Shown: positions 8,806-52,238 of the stretch, piece after piece
Position numbering within the stretch: the stretch's first letter is position 1
How the letters are laid out: the number at the start of each line of letters is the position of its first letter
Assembly (NCBI GenBank): GCA_938085105.1
Contig: CALKGK010000033.1
Span: 53,076-117,075, forward strand
DNA: 64,000 bases
Direction: 5' to 3'
Source: an uncultured Flavobacteriales bacterium
Lineage (GTDB): Bacteria; Bacteroidota; Bacteroidia; Flavobacteriales_D; Sanyastnellaceae
Program-made: the position numbers and the translations under genes
Notes under the pieces: generated by a model
Told to the model about the DNA's origin: nothing
The model's input: only the letters and a program-made list of their open reading frames with translations
The model's database searches: none

Positions 8806-8932
8806 ATCATTCTAGGTTTAATCGAAGCACTTTACACGAAATCAGCATTCTTTGCGTTTCTTTGTGCAGGGCGCTCAAAGATACATATTGAGGGTGAAGA
8901 GCGCCCAATCACCCGTGAAAAATAGCGATGCA

Positions 8933-10492
8933 ATGACAAATAAGGTAAGGATTCTTTGGGCCGATGATGAAATCGATTTACTCAAACCCCACGTTCTCTT
9001 TTTAGAGTCCAAAGGCTATATTGTAAGCACTGTGTGCAGCGGAAACGAAGCCATTGACGAGGTGGAGACCAATTATTTTGACATTGTGTTCTTGGATGAA
9101 AACATGCCCGGTTTGTCTGGATTAGAGACTCTTCAGAAAATCAAGGAGCTCGACGGAACGCTACCTGTAATCATGATTACGAAAAGTGAAGAAGAATCCA
9201 TCATGGAAGAGGCCATTGGCTCGAAAATCTCGGATTACCTCATCAAACCCGTTAACCCCAACCAAATCTTGCTTTCGGTGAAGAAGAATTTGGACGAAAA
9301 ACGCTTGGTGAGCGAGAAAACCAATTCAGGGTACCAAAGAGAATTTCAGCAAATAGGTATGCGTTTGATGGATCGTTTGGACGACGAAGAATGGTGTGAT
9401 TTGTATCGGAAATTGGTGTACTGGGATCTAGAAATGGACCGGTCTGAAGATAAAGGCATGGAAGAAATCTTGGCCATGCAAAAATCGGAGGCTAACCGTC
9501 AATTTTCGAAAACCATCAAGCAGAAATACTTGGCGTGGATCAACGGAACGGAAGAAGGTCCGGTAATGTCTCACACCTTACTCAAGTCTTGGTTGGCGCC
9601 AATGATGATTGAGAATAAGTCTGAAAAAGTGTACCTCATCGTGATTGACAATTTGAGGTATGACCAATGGAAGACGATACAGCCGAAAGTCTCGGATCTT
9701 TTTCGGGTGGAAGAGGAAAAAATGTATTACAGCATCCTTCCAACAGCAACACATTACGCGCGAAATGCACTGTTTTCTGGTTTATTGCCGAGTGAAATGG
9801 CCAAACTTTTTCCAAAACATTGGAAGAATGAAGAGGATGAAGGAGGGAAAAATCTGGCCGAAGATCATTTCTTGGAAGCCAACCTCAAAAGAATGGGCTT
9901 GGACCTTTCTTGGAGCTACCACAAAATTACTAACCTCAATGCAGGAAGGCGCTTGCTCGATAATTTCCACCAACTTCAGAACAACGATTTGAATGTGATA
10001 GTCTACAACTTTGTAGATATGCTTTCCCATGCTCGCACAGAAATGGAGGTAATCAAGGAGTTAGCAGACGATGAAAGCGCTTATCGATCCATTACTTCGA
10101 GCTGGTTTGATCATAGTCCGCTTCTCGAAATGCTTCGCGTCATGGCGAGCCAAGGAGCCAAAGTGGTGATTACGACAGATCACGGAACGGTGAAGGTAGA
10201 TCAAGCGGTGAAAGTGGTTGGAGATCGAAACACAAATACCAACCTGCGTTATAAAACGGGACGAAATTTGGATTACAACCCGAAAGAGGTGTTCGAAATT
10301 CGAGACCCAAGGGATGCTTATTTGCCGAAACAGAATGTGAGCAGCAGTTTTATTTTTGCCACGGATACCGACTTTTTTGTCTACCCGAACAATTACAATC
10401 ACTTCGTAAACTACTACAAAAACACCTTCCAACACGGTGGTGTTTCGATGGAAGAAGTGCTGATTCCTTTCATTGTTCTGAAGTCAAAATAG
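8933..10492 (+). CDS. porX: PorX-like response regulator (REC domain fused to PglZ/alkaline-phosphatase-like domain)
   Basis: REC domain: ILWADDEIDLL..., phospho-acceptor context IVFLDENMPG, ITKS. PglZ domain: LIVIDNLRYDQW, ITTDHGT. The first ATG at 8933 gives MTNKVRILWADDE; the track TTG extension is unlikely. Confidence 0.75.
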   Translation: MTNKVRILWADDEIDLLKPHVLFLESKGYIVSTVCSGNEAIDEVETNYFDIVFLDENMPGLSGLETLQKIKELDGTLPVIMITKSEEESIMEEAIGSKISDYLIKPVNPNQILLSVKKNLDEKRLVSEKTNSGYQREFQQIGMRLMDRLDDEEWCDLYRKLVYWDLEMDRSEDKGMEEILAMQKSEANRQFSKTIKQKYLAWINGTEEGPVMSHTLLKSWLAPMMIENKSEKVYLIVIDNLRYDQWKTIQPKVSDLFRVEEEKMYYSILPTATHYARNALFSGLLPSEMAKLFPKHWKNEEDEGGKNLAEDHFLEANLKRMGLDLSWSYHKITNLNAGRRLLDNFHQLQNNDLNVIVYNFVDMLSHARTEMEVIKELADDESAYRSITSSWFDHSPLLEMLRVMASQGAKVVITTDHGTVKVDQAVKVVGDRNTNTNLRYKTGRNLDYNPKEVFEIRDPRDAYLPKQNVSSSFIFATDTDFFVYPNNYNHFVNYYKNTFQHGGVSMEEVLIPFIVLKSK

Positions 10493-17156: not shown

Positions 17157-18512
17157 TCAGTTTGATGCAGACTGAACTAGCTTAAGGAAATCGTCATAGC
17201 TAAATGCCTTTTCCTTAATTTTTGTCTTCTCTTTGAGTGTGTCAACCACCTTGTTCTCATAGATCATTTCAGCTACTCGTTGGCTTTCTTCACGATTGGT
17301 CATCGCATTTGCTGCCATGGTGTTCAACTGTTCTTCGTCGAGCGGCATACCGTATTGAGCATACTGCTGAGTGATCATTTCTTTCACGTGCTGTACTACT
17401 TCTTCTGGCTTAACGTCCAATTCGTTTTCTTCAATCACACGATTTTGGATGAGTTGCCACTTCAAGCTTTCAGCATAAGAAGGATATTCTGCTTCGATTT
17501 GCTCTGGAGTCAATGGCTTTTCGTTCGCCGCTGCAATCCAACGCTTCAAGAAATCATCTGGAAGGGGTGGGTTGAGATCCTCAATCAACTTGTCTGCAAG
17601 TTGTTTCTTGAAAAAACGCTCAGCATCGTTGCGGAACATCTTGTCCAAATCAGCTTTGATACGCTCGCGGAATTCTGTTTCCGTTTTCACGTTTCCTTCT
17701 CCAAACACTTTGTTGAAGAGCTCTTCATTGATTTCAGCAGGAGTCATTCGCTTCACATCATTCACGGTCAATTTGAAGTTACCCTTAAGGTCGTGAACTT
17801 CATCGTGATTGATGTCCAACATGCGTCCAAGATCGTCATGACCTCGAGAAATGTGATGAGGATTAACAACGCGGGTCATTCCCGACTTCAATCCTGTAAG
17901 ATCTTTGATGGTTTTCTTGTCTTCCAAGAATTCAAGGCTGATCGTCACATCTTTCATGATTCCACCCTCAAGAATTTCATCCTTGTCGTCCAATTGAACG
18001 AGGGTCGCCATGATCATGTCTTTATCAGCAGAGCTTTCAGGAGTACTCATTTTTCCAAAACGGCGAGCCATGTCTTCTACCTGTTGGTCAATGAGTTTAT
18101 CATCAACATCAACAACGGCCATTTCCATCGCTTTTTTCGGAAGTTTGATTTCTACCTCAGGAGAAAGACCAATTTCGTATTCAAAAGTAAAGGCGTCTGG
18201 ATTGTCCCAGTCACCTTCAACAGTTTCGGTAACTTTTGGCAATGGGTTACCAAGAACTTTCAATTTGTTATCTACGATATGGTTGTTCAATGACTCGTTG
18301 ATCACTTTATTGATCTCATCGGCCAAGATGGATTTACCGTATTGTTTTTTCACCAATCCGAGGGGCACGTGACCAGCTCTAAATCCGGGCATGTTGACTT
18401 GCTTCCGGTATTGTTTGAGTGCTGATTCATACTTGTCGAAGTAGTCTTCTTTAGACAACTTGAGTGTGAGCACTGCGTTTAGTTCGTCAATGTTCTGCTG
18501 AGAAATTTCCAT
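17157..18512 (-). CDS. tig: Trigger factor
   Basis: 451 aa with ribosome-binding motif PGFRAGHVP. tig-clpP-clpX gene order. Confidence 0.9.
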   Translation of the reverse strand: MEISQQNIDELNAVLTLKLSKEDYFDKYESALKQYRKQVNMPGFRAGHVPLGLVKKQYGKSILADEINKVINESLNNHIVDNKLKVLGNPLPKVTETVEGDWDNPDAFTFEYEIGLSPEVEIKLPKKAMEMAVVDVDDKLIDQQVEDMARRFGKMSTPESSADKDMIMATLVQLDDKDEILEGGIMKDVTISLEFLEDKKTIKDLTGLKSGMTRVVNPHHISRGHDDLGRMLDINHDEVHDLKGNFKLTVNDVKRMTPAEINEELFNKVFGEGNVKTETEFRERIKADLDKMFRNDAERFFKKQLADKLIEDLNPPLPDDFLKRWIAAANEKPLTPEQIEAEYPSYAESLKWQLIQNRVIEENELDVKPEEVVQHVKEMITQQYAQYGMPLDEEQLNTMAANAMTNREESQRVAEMIYENKVVDTLKEKTKIKEKAFSYDDFLKLVQSASN

Positions 18513-18564
18513 AAGTCTTAACTTAGAATAGGTCGGCGAGTGCCGTTTGAATCTTGAAAAAAAG

Positions 18565-18646
18565 TGCGGATGGAGGGACTCGAACCCACACGCCGTGAAG
18601 CACTAGATCCTAAGTCTAGCGTGTCTACCAATTTCACCACATCCGC
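18565..18646 (-). tRNA. tRNA-Leu (anticodon TAG)
   Basis: Minus strand reads GCGGATGTGGTGAAATTGGTAGACACGCTAGACTTAGGATCTAGTGCTTCACGGCGTGTGGGTTCGAGTCCCTCCATCCGCA. It has a 7-bp acceptor stem, anticodon loop CTTAGGA, a long variable arm and T-loop TTCGAGT. There is one U-U mismatch in the T stem. Confidence 0.9.
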
Positions 18647-18712: not shown

Positions 18713-19585
18713 TTATTTTGAGCTTATTTTTATTTTAGAACAAGAGTGGTAAACATCTTCAATGGTTTTCCATGTTCCTTCGTTGATGCTGTAAGCAGCT
18801 TCTTCCACTCCCAACTCTGGATTGTACTTCCAAGTTACTGCTAATGATTGGAATGAATTGCATTGCACCGATACAAAGGATTTGTAATAGTTTTTGCCTT
18901 CGGGCGACTTCGCTTTGAGGTAGAATTCAATTTTTTTGACCGTCCCGTCTTGGTGTCTTTTGATTTTTGAAACTTGCACGTACATCCCGTTTTCTTTCGC
19001 TTGAAGCACTTTTGGGTTCCAACTTGAGGTGGGTTCATCTCCAAAAAGCAATAATTCATAAGCTTGAAAATCAAGTGAACTCTCGGCGTGGTCGGTTGAA
19101 TCCTCTGTGCTTTCGGGTGCATTGGGCAAATCAGACAAGCTTCTTTCTGGTTGACCCGTTACTTCTTGCTTGTTGCTTTTGGGTGATGGTTCAGTGGCGT
19201 TCATTGTTTCTTGAGTCTCCCTCAATTCCCAAGTTTTGGATGTTCTTTTTTCAGCCGGGAGTTCTGAAACGGGAATGTTGATTTTCTCCAATGTGCTTTC
19301 CTCAATGTACTGTTGGGTAATAACGCTGACAATGTCTAAGTTCTTTGCTGCTTGATGAACGGGCTTTGCGCTTTGCTGTGGTGATGCGTCTTGAACAAAA
19401 AGATATAGACCGATGCTAAATATGGCTGTGATACTCATGATAATGCTGTTTAAATGATTAAAAAAGTGGATTTTCCAAAACGATGGCGCTTGAGGTCCTT
19501 GCAGAACAAATTGCTCTACGTCATGCAAACTCACTTCTGGAGCGAGTTTTTTGGCTTGGTCGAAATAGTGTTTTTCCGTTTCCAT
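18713..19585 (-). CDS. Single-pass membrane protein downstream of ECF sigma (putative anti-sigma/sensor partner)
   Basis: 290 aa. Its ATG is 5 nt after the sigma gene stop. One TM (IIMSITAIFSIGLYLFV), a low-complexity S/T/E/P linker and a C-terminal globular region. No recognisable zf-HC2 motif, so the role is inferred from position only. Confidence 0.4.
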   Translation of the reverse strand: METEKHYFDQAKKLAPEVSLHDVEQFVLQGPQAPSFWKIHFFNHLNSIIMSITAIFSIGLYLFVQDASPQQSAKPVHQAAKNLDIVSVITQQYIEESTLEKINIPVSELPAEKRTSKTWELRETQETMNATEPSPKSNKQEVTGQPERSLSDLPNAPESTEDSTDHAESSLDFQAYELLLFGDEPTSSWNPKVLQAKENGMYVQVSKIKRHQDGTVKKIEFYLKAKSPEGKNYYKSFVSVQCNSFQSLAVTWKYNPELGVEEAAYSINEGTWKTIEDVYHSCSKIKISSK

Positions 19586-19589
19586 GGCG

Positions 19590-20138
19590 CTAGTGTTTTG
19601 TGAAATAAATCAGGTGTAAACTCAAAAGCACTTGCTGAAGATCTGCAGCTCCTTCAAGCTCTTTTCGCAGTTGCTTTCTCGACCGATGCAAATTCACCTT
19701 CACTGCAGATACGCTCTTGTTTTGAATTTGAGCGATCTCTTCAACCTTAAAACCAGAAATTTCAAACAACAAGATGGCTTCTTGACTTTTGGACGGGAGT
19801 CGGGATATCACCCGATACAGGTGATCGATGTCTGCCGCTATTTCTGGAGACGGAGACTGGCTCTGTAATCGCTCAAAAGCCCGCTCATCGTATTGTCCTT
19901 TGAATTTCTTTTTTCGAAGTTGATTGATGAATAGGTTGTTGGCCGTGCGCATCAAGTAAGCGAGAAAGGCCTTCTGATCTCGCAGTTTGTCAAAGCGCTC
20001 GTAAGCAAATGCAATGCTGTCTTGAACCAAATCTTCCGTTTCCATGATGCCGTATGTTCTGGCACTGCAGTACCTTACAAAGCCGTCGTGAACGGGCTTG
20101 TACAGCATCAAAAATTCGTTTTGTTTGGTTGTGGACAT
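19590..20138 (-). CDS. ECF-type RNA polymerase sigma-70 family factor
   Basis: 182 aa with region 2 (EDLVQDSIAFAYERFDKL, FLAYLMRTANNLFINQLRK) and region 4 HTH (EIAQIQNKSVSAVKVNLHRSRKQLRK). Confidence 0.85.
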   Translation of the reverse strand: MSTTKQNEFLMLYKPVHDGFVRYCSARTYGIMETEDLVQDSIAFAYERFDKLRDQKAFLAYLMRTANNLFINQLRKKKFKGQYDERAFERLQSQSPSPEIAADIDHLYRVISRLPSKSQEAILLFEISGFKVEEIAQIQNKSVSAVKVNLHRSRKQLRKELEGAADLQQVLLSLHLIYFTKH

Positions 20139-20266
20139 GTGATGTGCTTTGATAGGAAGGTCGTACAGCTTTACATTTGGTTACATCTTTCGTGAATTTT
20201 CCCTGATTTTCTCAGCGTGGATGAGGCAATTTTCCTAATTTCAGCACCTTAAAATGCCTTAACAGA

Positions 20267-21079
20267 ATGCGCTCTATTCTTTTAATCATTGCCCTATTAT
20301 TCACTCAATCCATCTTCGCTCAAGATGCTTTTCCATCCAGTGGAGGCCGATTTGAAGGAGTGAATGGCGCGGGTGTTGCCCTGCAAGATACGTGGTCCAT
20401 CATGCAGAACCAAGCAGGTTTAGCTCGGCAAGAACAATTCAGCGCAGGAGCCTTTCTGCAAAATCGCTTCGGTTTGTCAGAACTTACGGTGCTTTCTTTG
20501 GCCGTGGTGAAACCCATTCAAAATCAGGTGGTCGGACTTTCAATCAACACCTATGGCTTTCAGAACTATCGAAGATCTCGTGTGGGACTTGCTTACGCGC
20601 GAAAACTGGGAGAAGATTTGGATGTAGGTTTGCAAATGGCTTTTCACCAAGTGCAGCTAGGAGGTACTTACGGAACGAGCAATACCTTTACTGTGGAAGG
20701 TGGTTTTCGCTATCAATTGAACGAGGAGATTGCCGTCGCAGCTCATATTTTCAACCCCAATCGTAGTCAATTGAGTGACTTCAATAGCGAGAGCATTCCA
20801 AGTGTGATTCGGACAGGCATCTCGTGGGAGGTTTCGAAGAAGGTTTTGATTTTGGCTGAAGTACATCAGGTTTTTGATGGCAAAGTAGGGGTGCGAACCG
20901 GACTGGAGTACCATGCCGTTGAGCCACTGTACATCCGCTTAGGGGCGGGGTCTCGTCCTGATTTGTTTTCTTTTGGTCTGGGTTATGCTTGGAATCGGTT
21001 GAGCATTGATGTGGCAGCGAGCTATGAGCAGATTTTAGGAGTTCAACCCATGCTTTCGTTGACCTACCATGCGGAATAA
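20267..21079 (+). CDS. PorV/PorQ-like small outer-membrane beta-barrel protein
   Basis: 270 aa with signal peptide MRSILLIIALLFTQSIFAQ. GVNGAGVALQDTWSIMQNQAGLA aligns by eye with PorV in this window (GALGDAGVALSPDAASIHWNAAKMA). The rest has an alternating strand pattern. Confidence 0.5.
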   Translation: MRSILLIIALLFTQSIFAQDAFPSSGGRFEGVNGAGVALQDTWSIMQNQAGLARQEQFSAGAFLQNRFGLSELTVLSLAVVKPIQNQVVGLSINTYGFQNYRRSRVGLAYARKLGEDLDVGLQMAFHQVQLGGTYGTSNTFTVEGGFRYQLNEEIAVAAHIFNPNRSQLSDFNSESIPSVIRTGISWEVSKKVLILAEVHQVFDGKVGVRTGLEYHAVEPLYIRLGAGSRPDLFSFGLGYAWNRLSIDVAASYEQILGVQPMLSLTYHAE

Positions 21080-23195
21080 GTTGGGGAGACATACCGTCTT
21101 GAAATGGGGTGCACTGCTTGTTCTTGTTCTTGTCGTGATAAGGGCTCAATCTCAAGAAAGCAGGGATGAGATTGTTCGGCAAAGGATTATTGAGCAACGA
21201 ATAGAAATCATCGCAGAAGGATTGGAAGAAGGCGATGAGCTTGATTTTACCACCTTGTTTGACGACCTCAATTATTACTACGACCGAAAAATCAATTTGA
21301 ATCGTTGTTCACCTGAAGAACTTCGGTCATTGTACCTCCTTACAGAGTTTCAGATTCAAGGCCTTTTTGATCACATTGAAAAATACGGACAACTCAAAGA
21401 AATATGGGAGCTCCAAGCGGTGAAGAATTGGGACCAGTACACCATTCTCAATGTCCTCCCTTTTGTGACTGTGAAGCCCCCTTCAGAGCTCGAACGGGTG
21501 ACGCTGAAGGAGATCTTTAAAGAGGGGAAACACGATCTTTTCTTGCGCTATCAAGATGTACTAGAGGAACGACAAGGCTATGCTCCCATCTCCCCCGAGG
21601 AGTTGGCAGAAAACCCCAATAGGCGGTACTTAGGGAGTTCATACCGGGCTTATGCGCGTTACCGGTTTACTTATGGAAGAAACATCAGTTTCGGAATTAC
21701 AGCAGAAAAAGATCCCGGAGAAGAGTTTTTTAAGGGTACTCAAAAACAGGGTTTTGATTATTATTCAAGTCACCTCTACTACGAGAACAACACCTTTGTT
21801 CGAAGAGCAGTGGTGGGCGACTATCAACTTCAGTTTGGTCAAGGACTCACGCTGTGGTCTGGACTCGCCTTTGGTAAATCTGCAGACGCCCTGAATGCAA
21901 AACGAACTGAAATTGGGATACGCCCTTATACGTCAGTAGACGAGAACCTCTTTCTGAGAGGAGGAGCAGTAACGATAGGAGGGGAGCGCTTGCAATGGAC
22001 GAACTTCTACTCCTCCAAACACATTGATGCGAACATTGTGTCCACAAGCGACAGTGTAGATACCGAGCAATTGACCACCATTTCAAGTTTTCAGCTCAGT
22101 GGATTCCACCGAACTCCGGGCGAACTCCAAGACAAAGACGCCATCAGGGAGACTTACTACGGCAGCAACCTCACATACAAAACGCGAAGAGGGCAGATTG
22201 GTTTAACCGCTTTGATTTCGGAATACGATGCCAACATCAATAGAAATCTGCAATTGTACAACCAGTTTGAATTCAACAGCAAAAGCAACCAAGTGATTGG
22301 TTTGAATTACAGCAGAACCATTAAAAATGTCAACCTTTTTGGCGAGGTGTCTCGGAGTGAAAACGGAGCATGGGCAACCATCAACGGAGCGCTCGTTGCT
22401 CTGGATCCGCGCGTTTCGATGATCGCGATTTACCGAAATTATGCTCGGAAATTTCAAAACCAATTGGCCAATACTTTTGTTGAGGGAACTCGTCCGGCAA
22501 ATGAATCAGGGATTTATGTTGGCGGACAATTCAAAATTAATCGCCAGTGGACCGCCACAACCTATGCGGATTTCTTTCGCTTTCGATGGCTTCGATTCCA
22601 AACCGACGCTCCAAGTGCTGGCCGAGATTTTCTCACGCAGTTAAACTACAAGCCTTCCCGGAACAAAGAGTTTTACCTCCGGTACCGAAGTAGAACAAGA
22701 GACCGAAATGCTGGCTTTCTGGATGTTGACATCACCACACCCCTTCCTGTGAATCAACAAAATTTCAGGATCAATACCAGTTTCTTGGCACACCCCAACA
22801 TCAAGCTCAAATCAAGAGCGGAGTTGGTATTGTTTCAACAGGAAGGCCAGCCCATCGAACGGGGCTTCTTGTTGTATCAAGACCTCGTTTTCAAGAAAAT
22901 TCAGTTTCCTGTAAGCATGTCTCTCCGGTATGCCTTGTTTTACACAGACAGTTACAACGCAAGGATCTATGCCTACGAAAGTGACGTGCTGTATGCCTTC
23001 AGCATTCCCGCCTATTTTTCTCGCGGATCGAGGTTCTACGTCACGATGAAGTACAAAGTGAAAAGAGGAGTTGATCTATGGTTGCGCTATGCACGCTGGC
23101 ATTATGACGACCGCCAAGTGATCAGTTCTGGCTTGGAGCAAATCAATGCTCCGCACCGTTCGGAAATCAAAGTACAGCTCCGCCTTCGCTTTTAG
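21069..23195 (+). CDS. Outer-membrane beta-barrel protein with N-terminal ComEA-like helix-hairpin-helix region
   Basis: 708 aa. Its ATG overlaps the upstream stop by 11 nt. It has a signal/anchor segment. aa 75-135 (INLNRCSPEELRSLYLLTEFQIQGLFDHIEKYGQLKEIWELQAVKNWDQYTILNVLPFV) fits the ComEA (HhH)2 spacing. About 570 aa of strand-like sequence end in KVQLRLRF, an OMP C-terminal signature. Confidence 0.55.
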   Translation: MRNKLGRHTVLKWGALLVLVLVVIRAQSQESRDEIVRQRIIEQRIEIIAEGLEEGDELDFTTLFDDLNYYYDRKINLNRCSPEELRSLYLLTEFQIQGLFDHIEKYGQLKEIWELQAVKNWDQYTILNVLPFVTVKPPSELERVTLKEIFKEGKHDLFLRYQDVLEERQGYAPISPEELAENPNRRYLGSSYRAYARYRFTYGRNISFGITAEKDPGEEFFKGTQKQGFDYYSSHLYYENNTFVRRAVVGDYQLQFGQGLTLWSGLAFGKSADALNAKRTEIGIRPYTSVDENLFLRGGAVTIGGERLQWTNFYSSKHIDANIVSTSDSVDTEQLTTISSFQLSGFHRTPGELQDKDAIRETYYGSNLTYKTRRGQIGLTALISEYDANINRNLQLYNQFEFNSKSNQVIGLNYSRTIKNVNLFGEVSRSENGAWATINGALVALDPRVSMIAIYRNYARKFQNQLANTFVEGTRPANESGIYVGGQFKINRQWTATTYADFFRFRWLRFQTDAPSAGRDFLTQLNYKPSRNKEFYLRYRSRTRDRNAGFLDVDITTPLPVNQQNFRINTSFLAHPNIKLKSRAELVLFQQEGQPIERGFLLYQDLVFKKIQFPVSMSLRYALFYTDSYNARIYAYESDVLYAFSIPAYFSRGSRFYVTMKYKVKRGVDLWLRYARWHYDDRQVISSGLEQINAPHRSEIKVQLRLRF

Positions 23196-31929: not shown

Positions 31930-34836
31930 ATGAAATTATCAAACGTACTAGCGCTCTATGTCCTAGCCATGGGCTTGTTCGCAGTAAATTTTGAGGCAGG
32001 GGCACAGATTTGGTCCGAAAGCTTCGAAACAGATGGAGAAGGAACGAACTATGTTTCTTCATTCGCCTTTAACGATGGAACTAGTGATCACTTTGGAAGA
32101 ACTGATGGAACTAATGTTTCTGGTGCTTACAGTGGTTTTGATGGCACTTTCTTTTGGGCTGCTGAGGATTGGGATGACAATGGTGGAGACTTACTAACCG
32201 TGAAAACACTTACCTTCTCTGCAGTAGACATCACAGGTCTTTCAGACTTGCAGTTCAGCGGTTTGTTTGCCACTGAGCTTGTGGCCGGAGGCTGGGATTC
32301 AAACGATACCCTTCGTGTAGAGTATGCAGTAGACGGCGGTGCATGGACTACCTTGTTGACAACAGCTGCTCCAACTGGTGCTTCTGGAGCGAACATCGGT
32401 ATGTGGATGGATATGGACGACGATAATGTGGGTGACGTAGAAATCACTCCCGCTTTCCAAAGCCTCACCAAGTCGTTCACAGTTTCTGGAACTTCTTTGG
32501 TCATTAGAGCTTATGCAGATTCTCCTTCTGTTTCTGGAAGTGAATCTTTCGCTTTTGACTTCTTCGCAGTAAGCAACGTTGCAGGTGCGATCCCAGGTTG
32601 TACTGACCCAACGGCTGACAACTACGATGCTGCAGCTACTTTGGATGATGGTTCTTGCATCATATCTGGTTGTACGAATGATACTGCCGATAACTATAAC
32701 CCAAATGCAAACACCGATGATGGTTCTTGCATTATTCAAGGTTGTACCGATGATACTGCATTGAACTACAACGCCGATGCTACAAATGACGACGGCTCTT
32801 GTGTGTTCACAGTTCCTGCAATTGTTTTCAATGAGCTTCATTATAACCCTTGTACCGATCAAGGTGGGGATAACCTCTATGAGTTTATCGAGCTTTTCAA
32901 TAACGACGTGAATGCCGTTGACCTCTCAGGTTGGTCCATCGATGGGGTAGATTTCATTTTCCCAGCGATGTCTTCTATCGCTGCAGGAGAATACATTATC
33001 GTTGCTGCAACAGCTGCAACTTACGATGGAAATGGATACCAAGTATTCCAAGTAAGCGGTGGTGCTTTCGGAAACGGAGGAGAGCCAGTGAGTCTTTTGA
33101 ACGATGCAGGAATTGTAGTAGATGCTTTCATTTACGATACTGGTGTAAACTTCCCTAATGCTAACGGTAACTGTTCATCTTTGGAGTTGATTGATGTAAA
33201 CACAGACAATGCCATTGGTAGCAACTGGCAAGCTTCTTTCGAATTGAACGGAACTCCTGGAGCTGCGAACTCAACGGTTCCTCCCTTCACAGAGTACACT
33301 ATTTCTGAACTTCAGTCAGAGCTTTACACCAATGAAGGTGTTGCAACCAGCGGTGTTGTAACAGCAGTTTACGGTGGTTCTAACTTGTTTACCATGCAAG
33401 ATGGTACCGGTGCCAACTCAGGAATTTGGGTGAACGGCGCTGGAGTAGCTATCGGTGATGAAGTTGAGGTAGAAGGTGTTGTACTTGAAACCAATGGACT
33501 TACACAGATCAATGCTGAAAATATTGCTGTACTCACTTCTGGAAATGCTTTGCCAGCAGTTGAAGTATTGTCAACTTTTGACGCAAGCGCTGAGCAATGG
33601 GAGGGTGTTCTCTTGCAAGTGACTGGTACTGTTGGTGTAGGAGCTGGCGATCTTGGATTCGGAGAGTGGTCGCTCGACGATTCTTCAGGAGCGGTTCTTG
33701 TTGATGACCTCGGAGTGGTTCTAACCCCAGTAGATGAAGGCATTACCTTCCGCGTTACTGCTCCTTTGTATTACTCTTTTGGTAATTACAAACTTACACC
33801 AAGAAATGCTGGAGATGTTGAACGTTTCGGTTGTACCGATAACACATTCCCTAACTTCGATCCGCTTGCAACCATTGATGATGGTTCTTGTGCGAACATC
33901 CCTGGATGTACGAACCCTGCGGCTACCAACTTTGATCCTGCTGCTACAGCAGATGACGGATCTTGTATCGTAGAAGGTTGTACCGATGATACTGCTTTGA
34001 ACTACGATGCAACAGCAACTACTGACGACGGTTCTTGCTACTTTACTGAGCCTTTGATCGTTATCAATGAGATCCACTACAACCCATGTTTTGCGCAAGG
34101 TGATGACGGTGACTTCGAATTCTTCGAGCTTTACAATGCTGAAGCTACAAGCATCGATTTGTCTGGTTTCACAGTAACTGGTGGACCAAACATGACCTTC
34201 CCTGAAGGTGCATCAATCGCTGCTGGAGAGTACATCTTACTTGCGATGAACCCTGGTTCTTACACTGGAAACGGATACCAAGTATTCGAGTTGTTCGGAG
34301 CTCTTGGTAACGGAGGTACAGATATCAACCTTACCGATGCCTTTGGAAACTTGATCGATCAAGTGGTTTATGACGATGCTAACGGATGGCCTACCATGGC
34401 TGACGGAAACTGTCCTTCACTCGAATTGATCGATGCTTCGTCTGACAATAGTGTTGCAGCGAGCTGGCAAGATTCTTACGTAGATAATGGTACTCCAGGT
34501 GCTGCCAACAGTACTCCTCCTGCAGGATGTACAGATCCACTCGCATCTAACTACGATGCTACTGCTTTGGTTGACGATGGTAGCTGTGAATATGCTGGTT
34601 GTACCAATCCAGATGCATTGAACTACGATGTTAACGCAACCACAGACGATGGTTCTTGCGAACTCCTCGGTTGTACTTACGAGGTGGCGTCCAACTACGA
34701 TGCTATCGCTACTGTAGACGATGGTTCTTGTACTTTCAACATCAACCCATGTCCGGCTGACTTTAATCAAGACGGTTTTGTGAATGCTTCCGATCTTCTT
34801 CTTTTCTTGGGAGACTTTGGTTCTCCTTGTGATTAA
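31930..34836 (+). CDS. Mosaic secreted protein: N-terminal beta-sandwich-like domain, 3x3 Cys-bracketed modules, two lamin-tail (LTD) domains, ExeM/NucH-type OB-like region, dockerin-like tail
   Basis: 968 aa with signal peptide MKLSNVLALYVLAMGLFAVNFEAGAQ. LTD signatures FNELHYNP...NGTPGAANS (aa ~295-448) and INEIHYNP...NGTPGAANS (aa ~708-862). aa ~455-625, TISELQS...GVVTAVYGGSNLFTMQDGTGANSGIWV...GDEVEVEGVVLETNGLTQI, resembles the N-terminal region of ExeM/NucH nucleases. C-terminus is CPADFNQDGFVNASDLLLFLGDFGSPCD. Confidence 0.7.
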   Translation: MKLSNVLALYVLAMGLFAVNFEAGAQIWSESFETDGEGTNYVSSFAFNDGTSDHFGRTDGTNVSGAYSGFDGTFFWAAEDWDDNGGDLLTVKTLTFSAVDITGLSDLQFSGLFATELVAGGWDSNDTLRVEYAVDGGAWTTLLTTAAPTGASGANIGMWMDMDDDNVGDVEITPAFQSLTKSFTVSGTSLVIRAYADSPSVSGSESFAFDFFAVSNVAGAIPGCTDPTADNYDAAATLDDGSCIISGCTNDTADNYNPNANTDDGSCIIQGCTDDTALNYNADATNDDGSCVFTVPAIVFNELHYNPCTDQGGDNLYEFIELFNNDVNAVDLSGWSIDGVDFIFPAMSSIAAGEYIIVAATAATYDGNGYQVFQVSGGAFGNGGEPVSLLNDAGIVVDAFIYDTGVNFPNANGNCSSLELIDVNTDNAIGSNWQASFELNGTPGAANSTVPPFTEYTISELQSELYTNEGVATSGVVTAVYGGSNLFTMQDGTGANSGIWVNGAGVAIGDEVEVEGVVLETNGLTQINAENIAVLTSGNALPAVEVLSTFDASAEQWEGVLLQVTGTVGVGAGDLGFGEWSLDDSSGAVLVDDLGVVLTPVDEGITFRVTAPLYYSFGNYKLTPRNAGDVERFGCTDNTFPNFDPLATIDDGSCANIPGCTNPAATNFDPAATADDGSCIVEGCTDDTALNYDATATTDDGSCYFTEPLIVINEIHYNPCFAQGDDGDFEFFELYNAEATSIDLSGFTVTGGPNMTFPEGASIAAGEYILLAMNPGSYTGNGYQVFELFGALGNGGTDINLTDAFGNLIDQVVYDDANGWPTMADGNCPSLELIDASSDNSVAASWQDSYVDNGTPGAANSTPPAGCTDPLASNYDATALVDDGSCEYAGCTNPDALNYDVNATTDDGSCELLGCTYEVASNYDAIATVDDGSCTFNINPCPADFNQDGFVNASDLLLFLGDFGSPCD
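32599..32802 (+). repeat. Triplet 1 of 20-aa C-x18-C modules (consensus CTDxxAxNYDxxATxDDGSC)
   Basis: aa 224-291: CTDPTADNYDAAATLDDGSC, CTNDTADNYNPNANTDDGSC and CTDDTALNYNADATNDDGSC, with 4-aa linkers IISG and IIQG. Confidence 0.9.
33832..34038 (+). repeat. Triplet 2 of C-x18-C modules
   Basis: aa 635-703: CTDNTFPNFDPLATIDDGSC, CTNPAATNFDPAATADDGSC and CTDDTALNYDATATTDDGSC. The third module and the following LTD start are also similar to triplet 1 at the nucleotide level (ggttgtaccgatgatactgc.ttgaactac...). Confidence 0.9.
34528..34731 (+). repeat. Triplet 3 of C-x18-C modules
   Basis: aa 867-934: CTDPLASNYDATALVDDGSC, CTNPDALNYDVNATTDDGSC and CTYEVASNYDAIATVDDGSC, followed by the dockerin-like tail. 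Confidence 0.9.
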
Positions 34837-41888: not shown

Positions 41889-43634
41889 TTACTCTTGAGT
41901 AAAGCCTGTCGGACTTCCAACTCTGGTCATCGCGCAACGGAAACCAATGGTTGAAGTTGATCTTCTTTCATCCAAGAAACGACGTGTTCCTGGAATTATC
42001 CAGTAAGCTCTGTCTCTCCATGAACCTCCTTTGTAAACTCTCGCACGATCATTCACCAAGGTTGTTTTACCCCAGTCATACATGCGGTTTTCGTTACTTT
42101 CGAAAGAAGGATCTTCATAGTAAATAGAAGAGTTCAAATCACCATCACCGTAGTCGATGTTGTCTGATTCTCTATAATTTCTTCGATCGATGTTCTCAGC
42201 GATGGTTACATCACGCATTCTCATGTCACCAGGAGTTGACTCTATATAATCAGCGATTCCATCACGAAGATCTGGGGCAACTTGCGAATCAGAACTAGCG
42301 ATCAAATCCATTCCATCTTGAATTCTTTGGTTCGCTTCTGCGTGCAATCTGTTTTTCAAATCTTCTTTTGCTTGAGTAGTGTAAGTCAAAAGGTTGTCGA
42401 TGAGGTTCTGATCGGTATCAGTCAAACGCCCTTGAGAACGTTTTTGATACTCTTTCAAGAAATACTCTACACCTTCTACATCGTAAACTACATAGTCGTA
42501 CTTGTCTTCAAGACCACCTTCACTGTTCAATACTTTCGTTTGGAATACGTTTCCACGGAAAGGTCTAAACTCTCCTTTATCCTGAGGAGAAAGCGGACGA
42601 TAAACATCCATCACCCACTCGGATACGTTACCAGCCATGTTGTAAAGACCGTAATCGTTCGGAGCATAGCTATACACAGGAGTGGTAATGTCACCAGCAT
42701 CATTTAGAGCACCAGCAACTCCCATAAGGTCACCACGTCCACGAACGAAGTTTGCATTCAATTGTCCGTAGAATCGTCCACCGCTGTTATCGTTACGCAC
42801 ATAGTGTCCGTTCCAAGGGTAAGTTCTACGATCAGAGATCAATTCTTGGTAAGAGTTACCAATGAGTCCGAGAGCGGCGAATTCCCACTCTGCTTCTGTT
42901 GGTAGTCGATAACGTGGGAGCAAGATTCCATCTTCCATTCTCACGTTACGGTATCCGCTCGATCCTGGTCTCAGGTCAACCACACCGTCGGCATCTTTTT
43001 CACCTTCGTACTGTCCGCCAAAATAGGCATCAGTAGTGAAGTGTTCTTCATCCACTTGCGCTTCTGGGTTATGTACCAAAAGACCTTCACGAATCAAAAT
43101 GATTTCGTTCACACGGTCGGTTCTCCAAGCGCAAAAATCATTGGCCTGAAGCCAGTTGATTCCTACTACTGGATAATCTCTATAAGCCGGGTGTCTTAGG
43201 TAGTATTCAACGTAAGGTTCGTTGTACTCCATTTTCTCTCTCCACACCAAGGTGTCGGGGAGGGCTTTGTTTACGATTTCCGGATAGCTATCGCCATAGA
43301 TGCGTTGTAGCCAATGAAGGTACTCTAACCAGTACAAGTTGGTGACCTCGGTTTCATCCATGTAAAAAGAAGAAACAGTTACTCTTCGTGGAATATTATC
43401 CCAACCGTAAGTAACATCGTCTTCAACTCTACCCATGGTAAATGTTCCACCTTCGATGAGGACCAAACCTGGTCCGGTTTCTTGCTCAACAAAAGGGGCT
43501 TTTTCAAATCCACCGTTCGACGGGTCGTTGTAGGCCCATCCTGTGGCTCCAGAACGCTCTTGTCCGCAAGACGCGAGTAAGAGAACACTCCCGAGCAATG
43601 TTAGAATACTAAGTGAGTTCCTAAGGACTTTCAT
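41889..43634 (-). CDS. gldJ: Gliding motility lipoprotein GldJ (FGE-sulfatase/SUMF1-like fold)
   Basis: 581 aa with lipobox LLLASCGQ. GGTFTMG, NVSEWV and RVYKGGSWRD are FGE-sulfatase-domain motifs. Synteny with murF and porU/porV. Confidence 0.85.
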   Translation of the reverse strand: MKVLRNSLSILTLLGSVLLLASCGQERSGATGWAYNDPSNGGFEKAPFVEQETGPGLVLIEGGTFTMGRVEDDVTYGWDNIPRRVTVSSFYMDETEVTNLYWLEYLHWLQRIYGDSYPEIVNKALPDTLVWREKMEYNEPYVEYYLRHPAYRDYPVVGINWLQANDFCAWRTDRVNEIILIREGLLVHNPEAQVDEEHFTTDAYFGGQYEGEKDADGVVDLRPGSSGYRNVRMEDGILLPRYRLPTEAEWEFAALGLIGNSYQELISDRRTYPWNGHYVRNDNSGGRFYGQLNANFVRGRGDLMGVAGALNDAGDITTPVYSYAPNDYGLYNMAGNVSEWVMDVYRPLSPQDKGEFRPFRGNVFQTKVLNSEGGLEDKYDYVVYDVEGVEYFLKEYQKRSQGRLTDTDQNLIDNLLTYTTQAKEDLKNRLHAEANQRIQDGMDLIASSDSQVAPDLRDGIADYIESTPGDMRMRDVTIAENIDRRNYRESDNIDYGDGDLNSSIYYEDPSFESNENRMYDWGKTTLVNDRARVYKGGSWRDRAYWIIPGTRRFLDERRSTSTIGFRCAMTRVGSPTGFTQE

Positions 43635-43678: not shown

Positions 43679-44686
43679 CTAGAAAGACGGGCAGGATATT
43701 GTCCTAAACTTCTTTCTTTTTGGTCGACAATCAAACTGAATGGCCATTGAAACCTCGTGCGATCCTCCGGTTGCAGGGGTCAATTCAGAAACGGTAACGT
43801 CGTAGCTGTATCCAAAACGAATAACTTCGGTTTGGACACCCAAGGTAACGATAAATGCATCGCGATAATCTCCGAAAAGGAGTCCACGATACCAGATTCC
43901 ACCAACCAATGGACCTTTGTTTACGTAAAGACCCATATTAAGTTGCTGAAATTCTCCTTGTCTTCGATAAAGAATGTTTGGGGAGATGCTTGATTCGCTG
44001 TATCGACTGCGACGATCGATAGGGATAACGGCTCCTGCATGACCTGTCCATTTAATCGGAAGGCGGCTTGTACCAACGACCAAAGACTCGTTGGGCTCGG
44101 TCAAGTGATGAGCAGCAACTCCGAAATAGAATTTCTCTGAGAAACCAAGTAGTCCGGCGCTGAAATCCACGTTAGAAACAGTTCCACGTCCGTCCGCAGT
44201 AAGGTTTCCACGAGGCACGTCTCTTGTTTCATAGATGAACCCTTTTCTTGGGTCGATCATGTCTCCAAAAGTAAGTTTACTCCAGTCCAATGCTTTCTGC
44301 ATGTAGGTAGCCTGGAAACCTGCTTTCAAAGAGAAGGTTCTACTCAAGGCCATTTGATAAGAATAAATCCCACTAATGGTTGTTGTTGTCAACGTTCCTT
44401 CACCAGCTTGATCTCGAACGGCAATCAATCCCAAACCTCCGTGGAGGGTCTCCACATGTTGGTCATAACTCGCACTGCTCGTCACAAATGAACCTGACAG
44501 GGCAGGCCACTGGTTTCGGTAGTTCATCACCAATCGTGGACAACGCGCAGTACCCGCAAATGCAGGGTTCAAATAAAGCGGGTTGGCGTAAAATTGTGTG
44601 AACTCAGCATCCTGCGCCTGAGTACTGCTCGGCAGTAACATCGACAAGATGGCTATCATTCCTGTACATAAAAGTACTTTCTTCAT
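43679..44686 (-). CDS. PorP/SprF family type IX secretion system membrane protein
   Basis: Signal peptide MKKVLLCTGMIAILSMLLPSSTQAQ, then DAEFTQFYANPLYLNPAFAG (family signature), and C-terminus ...ISCPSF. The track N-terminal extension to 44845 overlaps porU and is rejected. Confidence 0.75.
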   Translation of the reverse strand: MKKVLLCTGMIAILSMLLPSSTQAQDAEFTQFYANPLYLNPAFAGTARCPRLVMNYRNQWPALSGSFVTSSASYDQHVETLHGGLGLIAVRDQAGEGTLTTTTISGIYSYQMALSRTFSLKAGFQATYMQKALDWSKLTFGDMIDPRKGFIYETRDVPRGNLTADGRGTVSNVDFSAGLLGFSEKFYFGVAAHHLTEPNESLVVGTSRLPIKWTGHAGAVIPIDRRSRYSESSISPNILYRRQGEFQQLNMGLYVNKGPLVGGIWYRGLLFGDYRDAFIVTLGVQTEVIRFGYSYDVTVSELTPATGGSHEVSMAIQFDCRPKRKKFRTISCPSF

Positions 44687-44826
44687 CACTTTTGGTTTGG
44701 TCTTCGTCCTACGTGAATTAGCAATATTACGAAAAATATTTCTGCATCTTTCGCATCTTTGCTGCAATAAGAGAACTTCAAGTTCGTTTATTTTGTTGCT
44801 TCTAGCCAAGTACATTATTAAAAGAT

Positions 44827-47800
44827 ATGCCCAAAACAATTCCATTCCTCCTCTTCTTTTGTCTCTTGAGTGCTACTGTTCTCGGACAAAAGACCGACGA
44901 ATATCGTTTTTCACTCACGTGGAGTGAAGATAGTGAAACAGCTGATATTCCTGTAGGTAAGATGGGATTCGAAGGGGCTGATTGGTCGGATGAGCTTCCC
45001 CAGTGGCACCACAATGAGATCATTGAGCGCGGTTTTTATGATGCAGACTTGACAAACTTCAATCCTATTGTTGAAGTGGTTTTGGAGAGTGACCTCACTC
45101 CGAGGCAAAAGAAACTGGCTTCGAGCGGGTTTCAGCCCAAATTGATTGCTAGAAGCACGGGAAATGGTACCGTTTTAAATTTGAGCGGAAATGGTATTCG
45201 CAAGACCGAAAATGGAACCTTCGAGCGTTTGGTAGGCGCTGCTTATGAGTTTGAATTGAGCGCAAAAGCGACCCAAAGAATGATGGAGTGGGCAGATAAT
45301 TCCGTGCTCGCAGAAGGAGAATGGTACAAGATTGGAATCGACCGCGATGGTGTGTATCGAATTGACCGGGCTTTCCTTCAGTCCTTGGGAATTGATCCGA
45401 ATACGGTGAACCCACAGCAAATCAACCTTTATGGGAATGGCGGGCGAATGCTGCCCTTTGAAAATAGTGCGGACCGACCGGATGACCTCCTGAAGAATGC
45501 CATCTTTGTGTCTGGAGAAGCAGACGGAAGCTTCGATTCGAATGATTACTTGCTCTTTTACGGACAAGGAGCGGATGCATGGGACTACAACGACGATTTG
45601 GGTCGTTTCGAACACCTCAATCACCATTACTCCGATTCTGCCTATTATTTTCTGCGCATCGATGATACCGATCCAAAAAGAATTATCGAAACCACTCCTC
45701 CATCAACCGCAGATTATGTCTTGAATTCTTTTGATGATCGGGCTTTGATTGAAAATGATGAAGTAAGTTTGGCGAAAACGGGAAGACGATTTTTTGGAGA
45801 GAATTTCGATCTCGACCCGTTAACCATTCCCTTCACAGTACCCATGCCCAATCTTCTAGATGAGCCCGCTCATGTAGAAATTGCTGTTGCCGCACGTTCA
45901 ATTGGAGCCAATAGTGAGTTTGAGGTGAATGTTGGAGATGCGCAATTTGACATTGTTGTTCAAGGTACAGGAACCAGTGCCATTGCGAACATCGCGAACA
46001 TCAGTGAAGGAGAAAGTGATTTCGTTCCAAATTCAAACAATGCGCTTACAGCTAGTCTCACTTTTGTGAAGGGAGAACCCAGTGCTGAAGGTTGGCTGGA
46101 TTACATTCGATTCAACGCCAAACGAGAGTTGAGAATGACGGGTGCGCAGCTCTCCTTTCGTTCCATCGAAGCACTCAATACACCGGGAGTAGCTCAGTAC
46201 TTGTTGGACGGTGCAAATCAACTCTTTCAGGTTTGGGATGTGAGCAACCCGAGCGATGCTTTTTCCATCCCTTTTCAAACAGAAGGCAACAATCAAAGAA
46301 GTTTTAATTCGAACGGCGGAAGCCTTAAGGAATTCATCGCTTTTTCAGACTTCAATTACCTCACTCCTGTTCCTAATGGTCGGGTAGAAAATCAGAATTT
46401 GCACGGTATGGGGAACGTGGATATGGTGATCGTTTGTCCGAGTCAAATGCTCCCTGCGGCTGAAGAGCTTCAAGCCATTCACGGAGCTGAAGGTTTGGAA
46501 ATCGAGATTGTTACTCCTCGTCAGGTTTATCACGAGTTTAGTTCTGGAAACGATGATGTGACGGCCATTCGAATGATGATGAAGATGCTTTATGATCGAG
46601 CGGCGGGCAATGAAGAATTACAACCAAAGTATCTCCAAATATTGGGAGATGGTACCTTCGACAACAAGCACATTCAAGACGAAAGTGGCCTTGTGATTAC
46701 TTACCAAAGCTTCAATTCTGTAGCGCCCATCGGGAGTTATATTAGTGATGATTACTTCGGTTTTTTGGATGATGAAGCAGGAGATGCCCTAGGTGAAGTG
46801 GTACAAATTGGTGTCGGTAGAATTCCTGCCGCGACCTTATCCGAAGCCTTGGGTTACGTGAATAAAGTGAAGGCATATCTGGCTTCAAATACTACCAGCG
46901 ATGGAGGAGCATTTTGTTTGGGTGATGGAAGCAACTCTCCCTATGGCTCATGGCGAAACATGATTACTTTCATTTCGGATGATCGGGATGGGAACGGCGG
47001 CCCGTCAGAGAGTGTTCACATGTCGAACAGCAATTCATTGGCAAATCAAGTCTACACGGAGCACAATGACTACGATGTGGTGAAATTATACATGGATGCT
47101 TACCAGCAAGAATCGACCCCTGGTGGAGAGCGTTACCCCGAAGGAGCTGCCGCCATTGAACGAAGAGTACAGAATGGTTCATTGATTGTCAATTATGTCG
47201 GACACGGTGGTGAACGAGGATTCGCCCACGAACGTATTTTGGACCTCACGACCATTCAGAAGTGGACCAACTTGAACCGCTTGCCTTTGTTTGTGACCGC
47301 GACCTGCGAATTGGCGAGATACGATGATCCTGAATTTCGTTCTGCCGGTGAGTTGATCATCATGAACGAAAACGGAGGAGCGATTGCCATGCTCACAACC
47401 ACCCGAATCGTAACAAGCCTGCAAAATCAATTCTTGAACTCAGCATTCTTTGATGTGGCCTTGGACGAACAAGGGATCGATAATTTGACGATCGGGAAAA
47501 TCATGCAGCTCACAAAAAATGCGGTTTCACCTTCGTCCAACAAAAGAAACTTTAGCCTACTCGGAGATGTGGCTTTGAGGTTGAGCTACCCCAAGTTTGA
47601 GGTGCAAACCACTACAATCAACGGAGAGGTGATCGATCCAAACAACCCTCAAGTCATCAATTCACTCCAAGAAGTGAGTATTGGCGGTTTTGTGAGTGAT
47701 GAAGCAGGCAACATCTTGAATGATTTTAACGGTTTCATATACCCTAGCGTTTTTGACAAGAGAAGCACTGTACTCACCTTGAACAATGATGGTGCAGCAA

Positions 47801-48678: not shown

Positions 48679-48701
48679 AGAACCTTTCAGGAGATTATAC
48701 G

Positions 48702-48709
48702 TATATTTG
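48702..48709 (+). promoter_or_regulatory. -7 box (TATATTTG) upstream of porV
   Basis: A TAnnTTTG match 23 nt upstream of the ATG at 48733. Confidence 0.45.
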
Positions 48710-48732
48710 CACACTATTATAAAACCAAAGCG

Positions 48733-52142: not shown

Positions 52143-52238
52143 AGTCAGGGCTAAAAATAAGATATTTAGCGTACACTTGATGAGAATACAAGGAAAGGAG
52201 CGTCTTCCCTCAGCGTGTTTGGAGTAATTAAAGAGAAA

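Follow-up and report, generated by a model that had tools for sequence, protein, structure and literature searches.

The 64,000-nucleotide stretch analysed here (the window; contig CALKGK010000033.1, from an uncultured Flavobacteriales bacterium) contains two overlapping genes, for secreted proteins of 270 and 708 residues, which are predicted to form a small and a large β-barrel of the outer membrane. They are arranged divergently from the genes for a sigma factor of the extracytoplasmic function (ECF) type and a putative membrane partner, and all four open reading frames (ORFs) were found in the ORF list where an initial annotation, made from the sequence, had placed them. That annotation described the larger protein as a helix-hairpin-helix (HhH) module set ahead of a large outer-membrane barrel and coupled to a barrel gene of the PorV/PorQ superfamily, an architecture that is borne out by the following features (nt, nucleotides; aa, amino acids; AF2, AlphaFold2).

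20267-21079 (+): 270-aa ORF, predicted small outer-membrane barrel of the FadL/PorV superfamily
21069-23195 (+): 708-aa ORF, predicted large outer-membrane protein with a signal peptide, acidic helices, a degenerate (HhH)2 module and then a ~24-strand barrel
21069-21079 (+): overlap of 11 nt, in which the small-barrel gene ends and the large-barrel gene begins, read directly from the sequence
21069-21152 (+): aa 1-28 of the 708-aa protein, signal peptide with a hydrophobic helix at aa 2-26 in the model and an inferred cleavage site
21153-21284 (+): acidic helical segment of the 708-aa protein, aa 29-72, from AF2 helices and family conservation
21285-21473 (+): degenerate ComEA/HHH_3-type tandem HhH module, aa 73-135, from HHH_3, the family profile and AF2 helices
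21528-23192 (+): predicted β-barrel domain of the 708-aa protein, aa 154-708, from DSSP of the AF2 model and invariant columns

At the junction the small-barrel gene ends in ...CAT GCG GAA TAA and the large-barrel gene begins with ATG CGG AAT AAG, so the overlap on which the initial annotation based its claim of translational coupling can be seen directly. A scan of GTDB species genomes, in which peptide patterns from conserved barrel loops were used to find further members, yielded 80 loci. They belong to Flavobacteriales (Cryomorphaceae, Crocinitomicaceae, Vicingaceae, Salibacteraceae, Fluviicola), Bacteroidales, Marinilabiliales and Lentimicrobium, and Fluviicola taffensis carries the pair. 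At 75 of the 80 the small-barrel gene directly precedes the large-barrel gene on the same strand; at the remaining five the DNA available upstream is shorter than ~430 nt. Spacing measured at 72 loci has a median of 0 nt, with the genes overlapping or abutting in 38 and lying within 30 nt of each other in 56, and clustering of all neighbouring ORFs at the 80 loci found nothing besides the pair conserved throughout. The co-occurrence of the two genes in related genomes, which had been offered as a check on the annotation, is therefore established, and the two genes are a Bacteroidota-wide, translationally coupled two-gene operon.

The large protein belongs to a family of at least 9,800 clusters at 50% identity. 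An exhaustive HMMER search returned 9,839 such clusters, 4,862 of them at E<=1e-30, and the best 150 of the 9,839 are all 670-745 aa long and match end to end. The databases label members only as "helix-hairpin-helix domain-containing" or "ComEA family", some of them at NCBI as "ComEA family DNA-binding protein". The earlier statement that no characterised system of this kind is known holds insofar as we found no paper describing the pair or assigning it a function, and is overstated insofar as the family already has names in the databases. A Bacteroidales-only profile search for named model organisms returned environmental names of metagenome-assembled genomes (MAGs) alone. Among the carriers are records with the labels Comamonadaceae, Synechococcus, Chitinophaga pinensis (a MAG) or Poribacteria (L002, L009, L058, P0074); given the ~45-57% identity of their proteins to those of Flavobacteriales, they are probably mis-binned or mislabelled contigs and do not count as evidence for the family beyond Bacteroidota. 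At L081 (7166-8001), and also at L047 and L055, the small-barrel gene is split into two ORFs (e.g. 120 + 148 aa), which could reflect a frameshift, a pseudogene or faulty assembly.

The small barrel protein and type IX secretion

Sec signal peptides are predicted on both products, each with Gln at the predicted +1 position; in the 270-aa protein the peptide spans aa 1-18 and the predicted cleavage falls between IFA and QD. Short N-terminal helices (aa 27-52) bearing a conserved NQAGLA motif follow, and then 14 strands (aa 58-269), which form a 14-strand barrel in an AF2 model of good confidence (mean predicted local distance difference test score, pLDDT, 88.2). The best Foldseek match of this model is PorV of the T9SS (type IX secretion system) translocon, 8gl6_F, with a template-modelling (TM) score of 0.80 and a root-mean-square deviation of 3.3; another PorV chain scores 0.77, channels of the FadL family (FadL, TodX, CymD) ~0.7, and the BamG-type FadL-like chains of β-barrel assembly machinery (BAM) complexes from Bacteroidota 0.56-0.62.

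Sequence comparisons point the same way. The NCBIfam model PorV_fam (NF033709) matches the 270-aa protein at E=2.9e-10 with 40.2 bits, under its cut-off of 90, a profile of the 270-aa family finds Flavobacterium johnsoniae PorV in the PDB (6h3i_F, E=1.9e-5), and hhalign yields E=6.6e-4 for the PorV encoded in the window itself, with the N-terminal motif aligned to that of PorV. The PorV-like N-terminal signature noticed in the initial annotation is thus upheld by both profile and structural matches. The equivalog models for PorV (NF033710) and PorQ (NF033711) gave no match to the protein at E<=1, and it is ~130 aa shorter than PorV (402 residues in the F. johnsoniae chain). We classify the 270-aa protein, from its sequence matches, as a small paralogue in the FadL/PorV superfamily that is neither PorV nor PorQ itself, because the genuine PorU-PorV pair of the same genome sits elsewhere in the window, at 44827-49971 (PorU, 1270 bits; PorV, 48733-49971, 469 bits). 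PorX (8852-10492, 840 bits), GldJ (41889-43634) and a protein of the PorP/SprF family (43679-44845) are also encoded in the window, and the genome has what looks like a complete T9SS attachment set, separate from the barrel pair.

This resemblance raises the possibility that the pair is itself associated with the T9SS, the small PorV/PorQ-like barrel shuttling or anchoring T9SS cargo and the large barrel acting as its docking or attachment partner. PorV is the closest structural and sequence relative of the small protein, FadL-type barrels of the T9SS have partners (SprA for PorV, the attachment complexes for PorV and PorQ, type B cargo for PorP-like proteins), the family is seen only in Bacteroidota-labelled genomes apart from the few likely mis-binned MAGs, and PorU, PorV, PorX, GldJ and PorP/SprF are present in this very genome. 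We nevertheless regard such a role as unlikely. None of the ~85 loci read has a gene for a T9SS component next to the pair, and only occasional genes with C-terminal domains of the T9SS-cargo type (Por_Secre_tail, CHU_C) occur nearby; neither the 270-aa nor the 708-aa protein has a Pfam or NCBIfam match to a T9SS C-terminal domain; the small protein stays below the PorV and PorQ equivalog cut-offs and is shorter than PorV; and none of the papers searched combines an HhH protein with PorV or the T9SS. Furthermore, BamG, a FadL-family 14-strand barrel on the back of the BamA barrel, demonstrates that a FadL/PorV-like fold does not imply type IX secretion (PMC12611786).

The large barrel protein and its helix-hairpin-helix module

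The AF2 model of the 708-aa protein, built from a 63-sequence alignment, has a mean pLDDT of 84.3 and a predicted TM score of 0.71, and its strands, ~24 as counted from DSSP, occupy aa 154 to 707. Together with the C-terminus, ...KVQLRLRF, an ending (...RLRF) of the outer-membrane protein type, the model agrees with the initial assignment of the C-terminal ~570 aa to an outer-membrane barrel. The most conserved loops of the family are DPGEEFFxG (aa 215-223) and GDYQxQFGQGL...ENLFxRG (aa 250-298), and Gln29, the predicted mature N-terminus, is invariant (family consensus 'AQ').

Neither Pfam nor NCBIfam has a model for aa 150-708. Foldseek matched the 708-aa model to generic large barrels alone (MtrB, TonB-dependent transporters, AlgE, FimD, SlpA), at TM scores of at most 0.46 and with no family assignment, and sequence and family-profile searches of the PDB returned HhH-domain proteins alone, leaving the large barrel unmatched. 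The barrel resembles large gated barrels such as TonB-dependent transporters (22 strands), the FimD and PapC ushers (24) and MtrB (26) in size class and as top structural matches, and shares with TonB-dependent transporters an N-terminal domain directly before strand 1, but the match is remote (TM 0.2-0.46), there is no sequence similarity, and plug, TonB-box and usher domains are absent. Models of TonB-dependent transporters in Pfam and NCBIfam, including the plug (PF07715), gave no match at E<=1, and we rejected that identity for the 708-aa protein.

In outer-membrane proteins, the distribution of short and long strand connections indicates which side of the barrel is periplasmic. Every second connection of the 708-aa barrel is 2-5 aa long and the alternate ones reach 40 aa, and because of this pattern the start of strand 1 and the N-terminal module would lie on the periplasmic side. 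The helical module (~120 aa), which directly precedes strand 1, is thus predicted with good confidence to sit at the periplasmic mouth of the barrel or within its pore; it could be either free in the periplasm or tucked into the pore like the plug of a TonB-dependent transporter.

These features could also belong to two outer-membrane proteins with no more than an operon in common, the small one a channel of the FadL type for hydrophobic compounds and the large one a porin or tether unrelated to it. The matches of the small protein to FadL, TodX and CymD would suit the former, and the large protein is like OmpM/SlpA-type proteins, if only in having a periplasmic N-terminal domain before a large barrel. 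Near-universal adjacency in a fixed order, with overlapping stop and start codons over several orders, would be unusual for unrelated genes, and we hold this explanation to be improbable.

The N-terminal module begins with the acidic segment, which has helices at aa 32-51 and 60-72 in the AF2 model, the family consensus IIEQRIExIAExLExEELDYTTLFDxL and a median net charge of -10 over 63 homologues. The HhH module then follows. HHH_3 matches aa 73-133 over model positions 4-64/65 with E=0.0024 and 18.4 bits, under the cut-off of 27, and reaches E<=0.01 in 46 of the 63 aligned homologues (best 3.1e-9), so that the profile check proposed with the initial annotation succeeds at the level of the family and falls short for this protein's own score. 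A profile of the N-terminal part of the family aligned with the full HhH domain of ComEA in the PDB (8dss, E=6.8e-4) and with the HhH domains of EEPD1, TEFM and Tex. With helices at 82-86, 93-106, 112-117 and 123-132 (pLDDT 85-90) and the profile alignment to 8dss, aa 73-133 are predicted to have the five-helix fold of the (HhH)2 type. The ComEA-type tandem spacing that had been noticed right after the signal or anchor is therefore genuine: the module shares with ComEA the Pfam family, the spacing (INLN...EL...G.L...EL...PF) and an extracytoplasmic location.

The hairpins themselves have diverged, as the annotation had remarked for this one protein and as proves true of the whole family. At the position of the ComEA GIG hairpin, hairpin 1 reads L90-L91-T92-E93 here and L-L-[T/N/S] followed by D/E in all 63 homologues, with glycine in none, and the lysine that follows it in ComEA is replaced by Gln95 in 59 of 63. 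The second hairpin, N120-W121-D122 in the 708-aa protein, reads G-[F/W]-D in the majority of relatives; its second Gly is Asp in 52 of 63, and the position of its lysine (residue 124) is variable and often acidic. The median net charge of the module across the homologues is -3. In Vibrio cholerae ComEA, the GIG hairpin of HhH1 and K62/K63 bind DNA, and the ability to bind DNA, take it up or be transformed is lost in the variants G60V, G60E, K63E and K62/63A (PMC3879209).

As judged from the alignment, then, the fold is ComEA-like but the DNA-binding features of ComEA are replaced family-wide, and of the proposed ComEA-type DNA-binding module the fold and spacing stand while the DNA-binding role is weakened. 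Because the hairpin glycines and lysines are lost, we consider the module more likely to be a docking or gating domain than a ComEA-like DNA clamp, and it probably does not bind DNA. ComEA is soluble or anchored in the inner membrane, whereas the module here is fused to an outer-membrane barrel, has its GIG hairpins and lysines replaced and shows no linkage to com genes. Membership of ComEA was rejected for the 708-aa protein, which falls below the cut-offs of HHH_3 and of TIGR01259 (comE; 12.4 bits against 152) and is without G-h-G hairpins and DNA-contact lysines.

Neighbouring genes, DNA transport and regulation

To count lineages, loci were collapsed at 60% identity, which gave 43. A recurrent neighbour is purE, found upstream of the small-barrel gene at 20 of the 80 loci, or 10 of the 43 lineages (among them L004, L008, L015, L020, L024, L027, L030, L036, L045, L051, L054, L060, L062, L075, L081 and L085), usually directly and on the same strand and sometimes as purK-purE. 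Where the two are adjacent, the gap is -1 to ~500 nt, mostly below 150, and hpt, adk and obg often lie beyond purE in divergent orientation. This adjacency to purE, hpt and adk could represent old synteny or hint at a link with purines or nucleic acids. A gene for a POT transporter is downstream of the pair at 8 loci, efp and lpxD are further neighbours, and three additional contexts with precomputed Pfam labels hold housekeeping genes and no com or T9SS component genes. A ~145-aa protein with a lipoprotein-like N-terminus (MKYLFILLSFVVLASC...) is encoded directly upstream of the small-barrel gene, with a gap of -7 to 21 nt, at seven loci that form one lineage at 60% identity (L046, L050, L058, L066, L071, L073, L076), where the operon may thus have three members. 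In the window itself, 8.7 kb from the pair, a 968-aa protein (31930-34836, +) has two lamin-tail domains and a weak partial match, at 30 bits far under the cut-off, to the ExeM/NucH family of extracellular endonucleases, and is possibly a nuclease-like protein located at the surface or outside the cell.

The ComEA-like fold invites the view that the pair is a DNA conduit, in which DNA would cross the outer membrane through the ~24-strand barrel and the fused module would serve as a periplasmic ratchet, in place of PilQ and the type IV pilus with ComEA, for transformation, DNA scavenging or the tethering of extracellular DNA. In its favour are the HHH_3/ComEA-type fold at the family level and the 'ComEA family DNA-binding protein' names at NCBI, a strand number like that of usher barrels (FimD being among the Foldseek matches), a pore of such a size being perhaps able, were it unplugged, to take duplex DNA, the purine genes beside the pair in ~10 of 43 lineages, and the nearby lamin-tail protein. 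We consider such a conduit doubtful, and the replacement of the ComEA glycines and lysines across the family is what lowers it: hairpin 1 is glycine-free in every homologue, Gln95 stands for the lysine and hairpin 2 has mostly Asp for Gly, at positions equivalent to residues that V. cholerae ComEA requires for DNA binding (PMC3879209). The module and the segment before it are also net acidic, and the comE model scores far below its cut-off. A linkage to DNA uptake, one of the roles suggested initially, was not recovered, as comEC, comF and dprA occur in none of the ~85 neighbourhoods read.

The known outer-membrane route for DNA in Bacteroidota is different again. Riemerella and Bacteroides import DNA by a TonB-dependent transporter with a lipoprotein lid (RA0C_RS04915/04920, DdbCD) and a separate HhH protein, RA0C_RS02645 (PMC8459023, PMC12478041). 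The two systems are alike in coming from Bacteroidota and in having an outer-membrane barrel and an HhH domain, which in Riemerella and Bacteroides act together in DNA handling. Their barrel, however, carries a carboxypeptidase-regulatory-like domain and a DUF5689 lipoprotein as its lid, whereas ours has no match to a TonB-dependent transporter or plug, and the Riemerella HhH protein is separate, with three motifs at aa 236-301, whereas here the HhH module occupies aa 73-133 of the barrel protein itself, whose partner is a PorV-like barrel. RA0C_RS02645, compared by description, is probably not a member of the present family, given the position and number of its motifs and its Firmicutes homologues.

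A more speculative version, which we think a long shot, would make the pair a pilus-independent nucleic-acid channel of the outer membrane, widespread in Bacteroidota, the barrel passing DNA or oligonucleotides, the diverged ComEA module capturing them at the periplasmic mouth and the PorV-like barrel gating or loading the pore, to feed transformation or purine salvage. The recurrent position beside purE, hpt and adk would fit such a channel.

The divergent genes that share the intergenic region with the pair in the window are as follows.

18713-19585 (-): 290-aa ORF from the ORF list, predicted single-pass membrane protein and candidate anti-sigma factor
19590-20138 (-): 182-aa ORF, ECF-type sigma factor by Pfam Sigma70_r2 and Sigma70_r4_2 and by TIGR02937
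20139-20266 (strand not applicable): divergent intergenic region of 128 nt, from pairwise alignment with L001

The 182-aa protein is an ECF sigma factor as annotated. Sigma70_r2 (37 bits) and Sigma70_r4_2 (51.6 bits) are both above their cut-offs, TIGR02937 scores 74 bits against 42.9, and the protein has regions 2 and 4 only, as is characteristic of ECF (group 4 sigma-70) factors. It reaches none of the sigma equivalog models, the best being NF058625 with 88 bits against a cut-off of 130. The gene for the 290-aa protein starts 4 nt after the sigma gene, a pairing kept only in L001, the nearest relative (85% identical), where the 290-aa protein is 50% identical. The 290-aa protein has one hydrophobic stretch at ~aa 46-64, read from the sequence, and no match in Pfam or NCBIfam, including anti-sigma domains; it is possibly an anti-sigma factor.

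The initial annotation took the four genes for a single ECF-controlled unit, an envelope-stress module in which a sigma factor freed from its membrane partner would activate the divergent barrel operon. The divergent layout with its shared intergenic region, kept in L001, would agree with this, as would a second observation: at six related loci (L052, L058, L071, L073, L076, L079) a different ECF-type sigma gene lies on the same strand 90-200 nt downstream of the large gene, with no similarity to the window's sigma factor detectable by tblastn at 1e-3. Yet among the 80 loci the sigma and 290-aa genes adjoin the pair only in L001, and ECF genes of any kind are next to the pair in 2 of the 43 lineages, one lineage for each of two sigma families and arrangements. 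At other loci, the gene ahead of the pair is purE or another housekeeping gene in the same orientation, at the mostly short gaps described above. The four-gene module is accordingly very improbable, and the sigma factor and its partner appear to be lineage-specific chance neighbours of the pair, outside any conserved module. The analogy drawn to PorX and SigP likewise finds no footing, since the sigma factor reaches no equivalog cut-off and PorX is simply a gene 9 kb away.

The intergenic region, which has no Rfam match, contains two blocks kept with L001, one beside the sigma gene and the other, GCAATTTTCCTAATTTCAGCA, 20-45 nt ahead of the start codon of the small-barrel gene. In the former (window 20139-20200, minus strand) is the sequence GTAAC-N16-CGAC, which resembles the -35 and -10 elements of ECF-type promoters and could be a candidate autoregulated promoter of the sigma factor; inspection by eye, a weak test, saw it on the sigma gene's strand only, with no copy upstream of the barrel genes. 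Upstream of the pair, no riboswitch or leader RNA was matched by Rfam, and the gaps are mostly short; the Bacteroidota sigma-A -7 motif TAnnTTTG, present in 5.4% of background windows, occurs at 7 of 68 loci, which is uninformative; and a scan for the sigma-70 consensus gave hits at the level of shuffled sequence.

A proposed two-barrel complex of the outer membrane

We suggest, with a probability of about 0.5, that the pair forms a constitutive hetero-oligomeric two-barrel complex of the outer membrane, a gated translocation pore built like SprA-PorV or BamA-BamG. PorV is present in the SprA translocon structures 6h3i and 8gl6, and the docking of the two barrels is proposed here because PorV docks in this way on SprA and the FadL-type BamG on BamA, in the same phylum. 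In each case a small partner with the 14-strand FadL/PorV fold accompanies a large barrel that needs gating, and here the genes are in addition adjacent and coupled. The likeness has its limits. SprA has 36 strands and BamA 16 strands with POTRA domains, whereas the large barrel described here has ~24 strands with an N-terminal HhH module and is covered by no Pfam or NCBIfam model, and the small protein is shorter than PorV and below the PorV_fam cut-off.

By this model, the small barrel would dock laterally on the large one, the two being produced in a fixed ratio. A barrel as wide as ~24 strands would have to be gated, the candidates being the conserved long loops at aa 215-230 and 250-298, the N-terminal module, or both. 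The HhH module, descended from a ComEA-type fold, would now serve at the periplasmic mouth for docking or gating, and the complex as a whole would be constitutive envelope machinery that passes cargo through a gated pore. We ascribe a housekeeping character to it because the family is large and uniform in length (9,839 clusters) and its neighbours are genes such as efp, lpxD, purE, hpt, adk and obg.

Several points weigh against this proposal. The interaction of the two barrels is put forward from gene coupling and analogy alone, and HHH_3 is the sole family signal for the 708-aa protein. Nucleic-acid binding persists in some HhH domains whose hairpins are imperfect, and the repeated occurrence of purE, hpt and adk beside the pair (10 of 43 lineages) could point to a role in nucleic-acid or purine handling. 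The presence of PorU, PorV, PorX, GldJ and PorP/SprF in the window, finally, leaves room for a function in type IX secretion.

The outer membrane of Bacteroidota is built differently from that of Proteobacteria, and both its T9SS translocon and its BAM complex have recently been found to carry a FadL/PorV-type barrel on a larger barrel. The pair described here looks like a third type of such a FadL-like-plus-large-barrel unit in this phylum. It is very widespread, with thousands of clusters, yet the large barrel has no curated family model and we found no study of it. Knowledge of its cargo would close a gap in what is understood of the envelope in a major phylum of the environment and the gut and, if that cargo were nucleic acid, would bear on how DNA crosses the outer membrane in bacteria without type IV pili.

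Two further features of the window were noted in passing. Genes for a VTC-domain protein and a DUF4956 protein adjoin each other at 50455-52274 (-), a polyphosphate-related pair with no relation to the barrel pair. A tRNA-Leu gene (anticodon TAG) is located at 18564-18646 (-), between the trigger factor gene (17157-18512) and the gene for the 290-aa protein.

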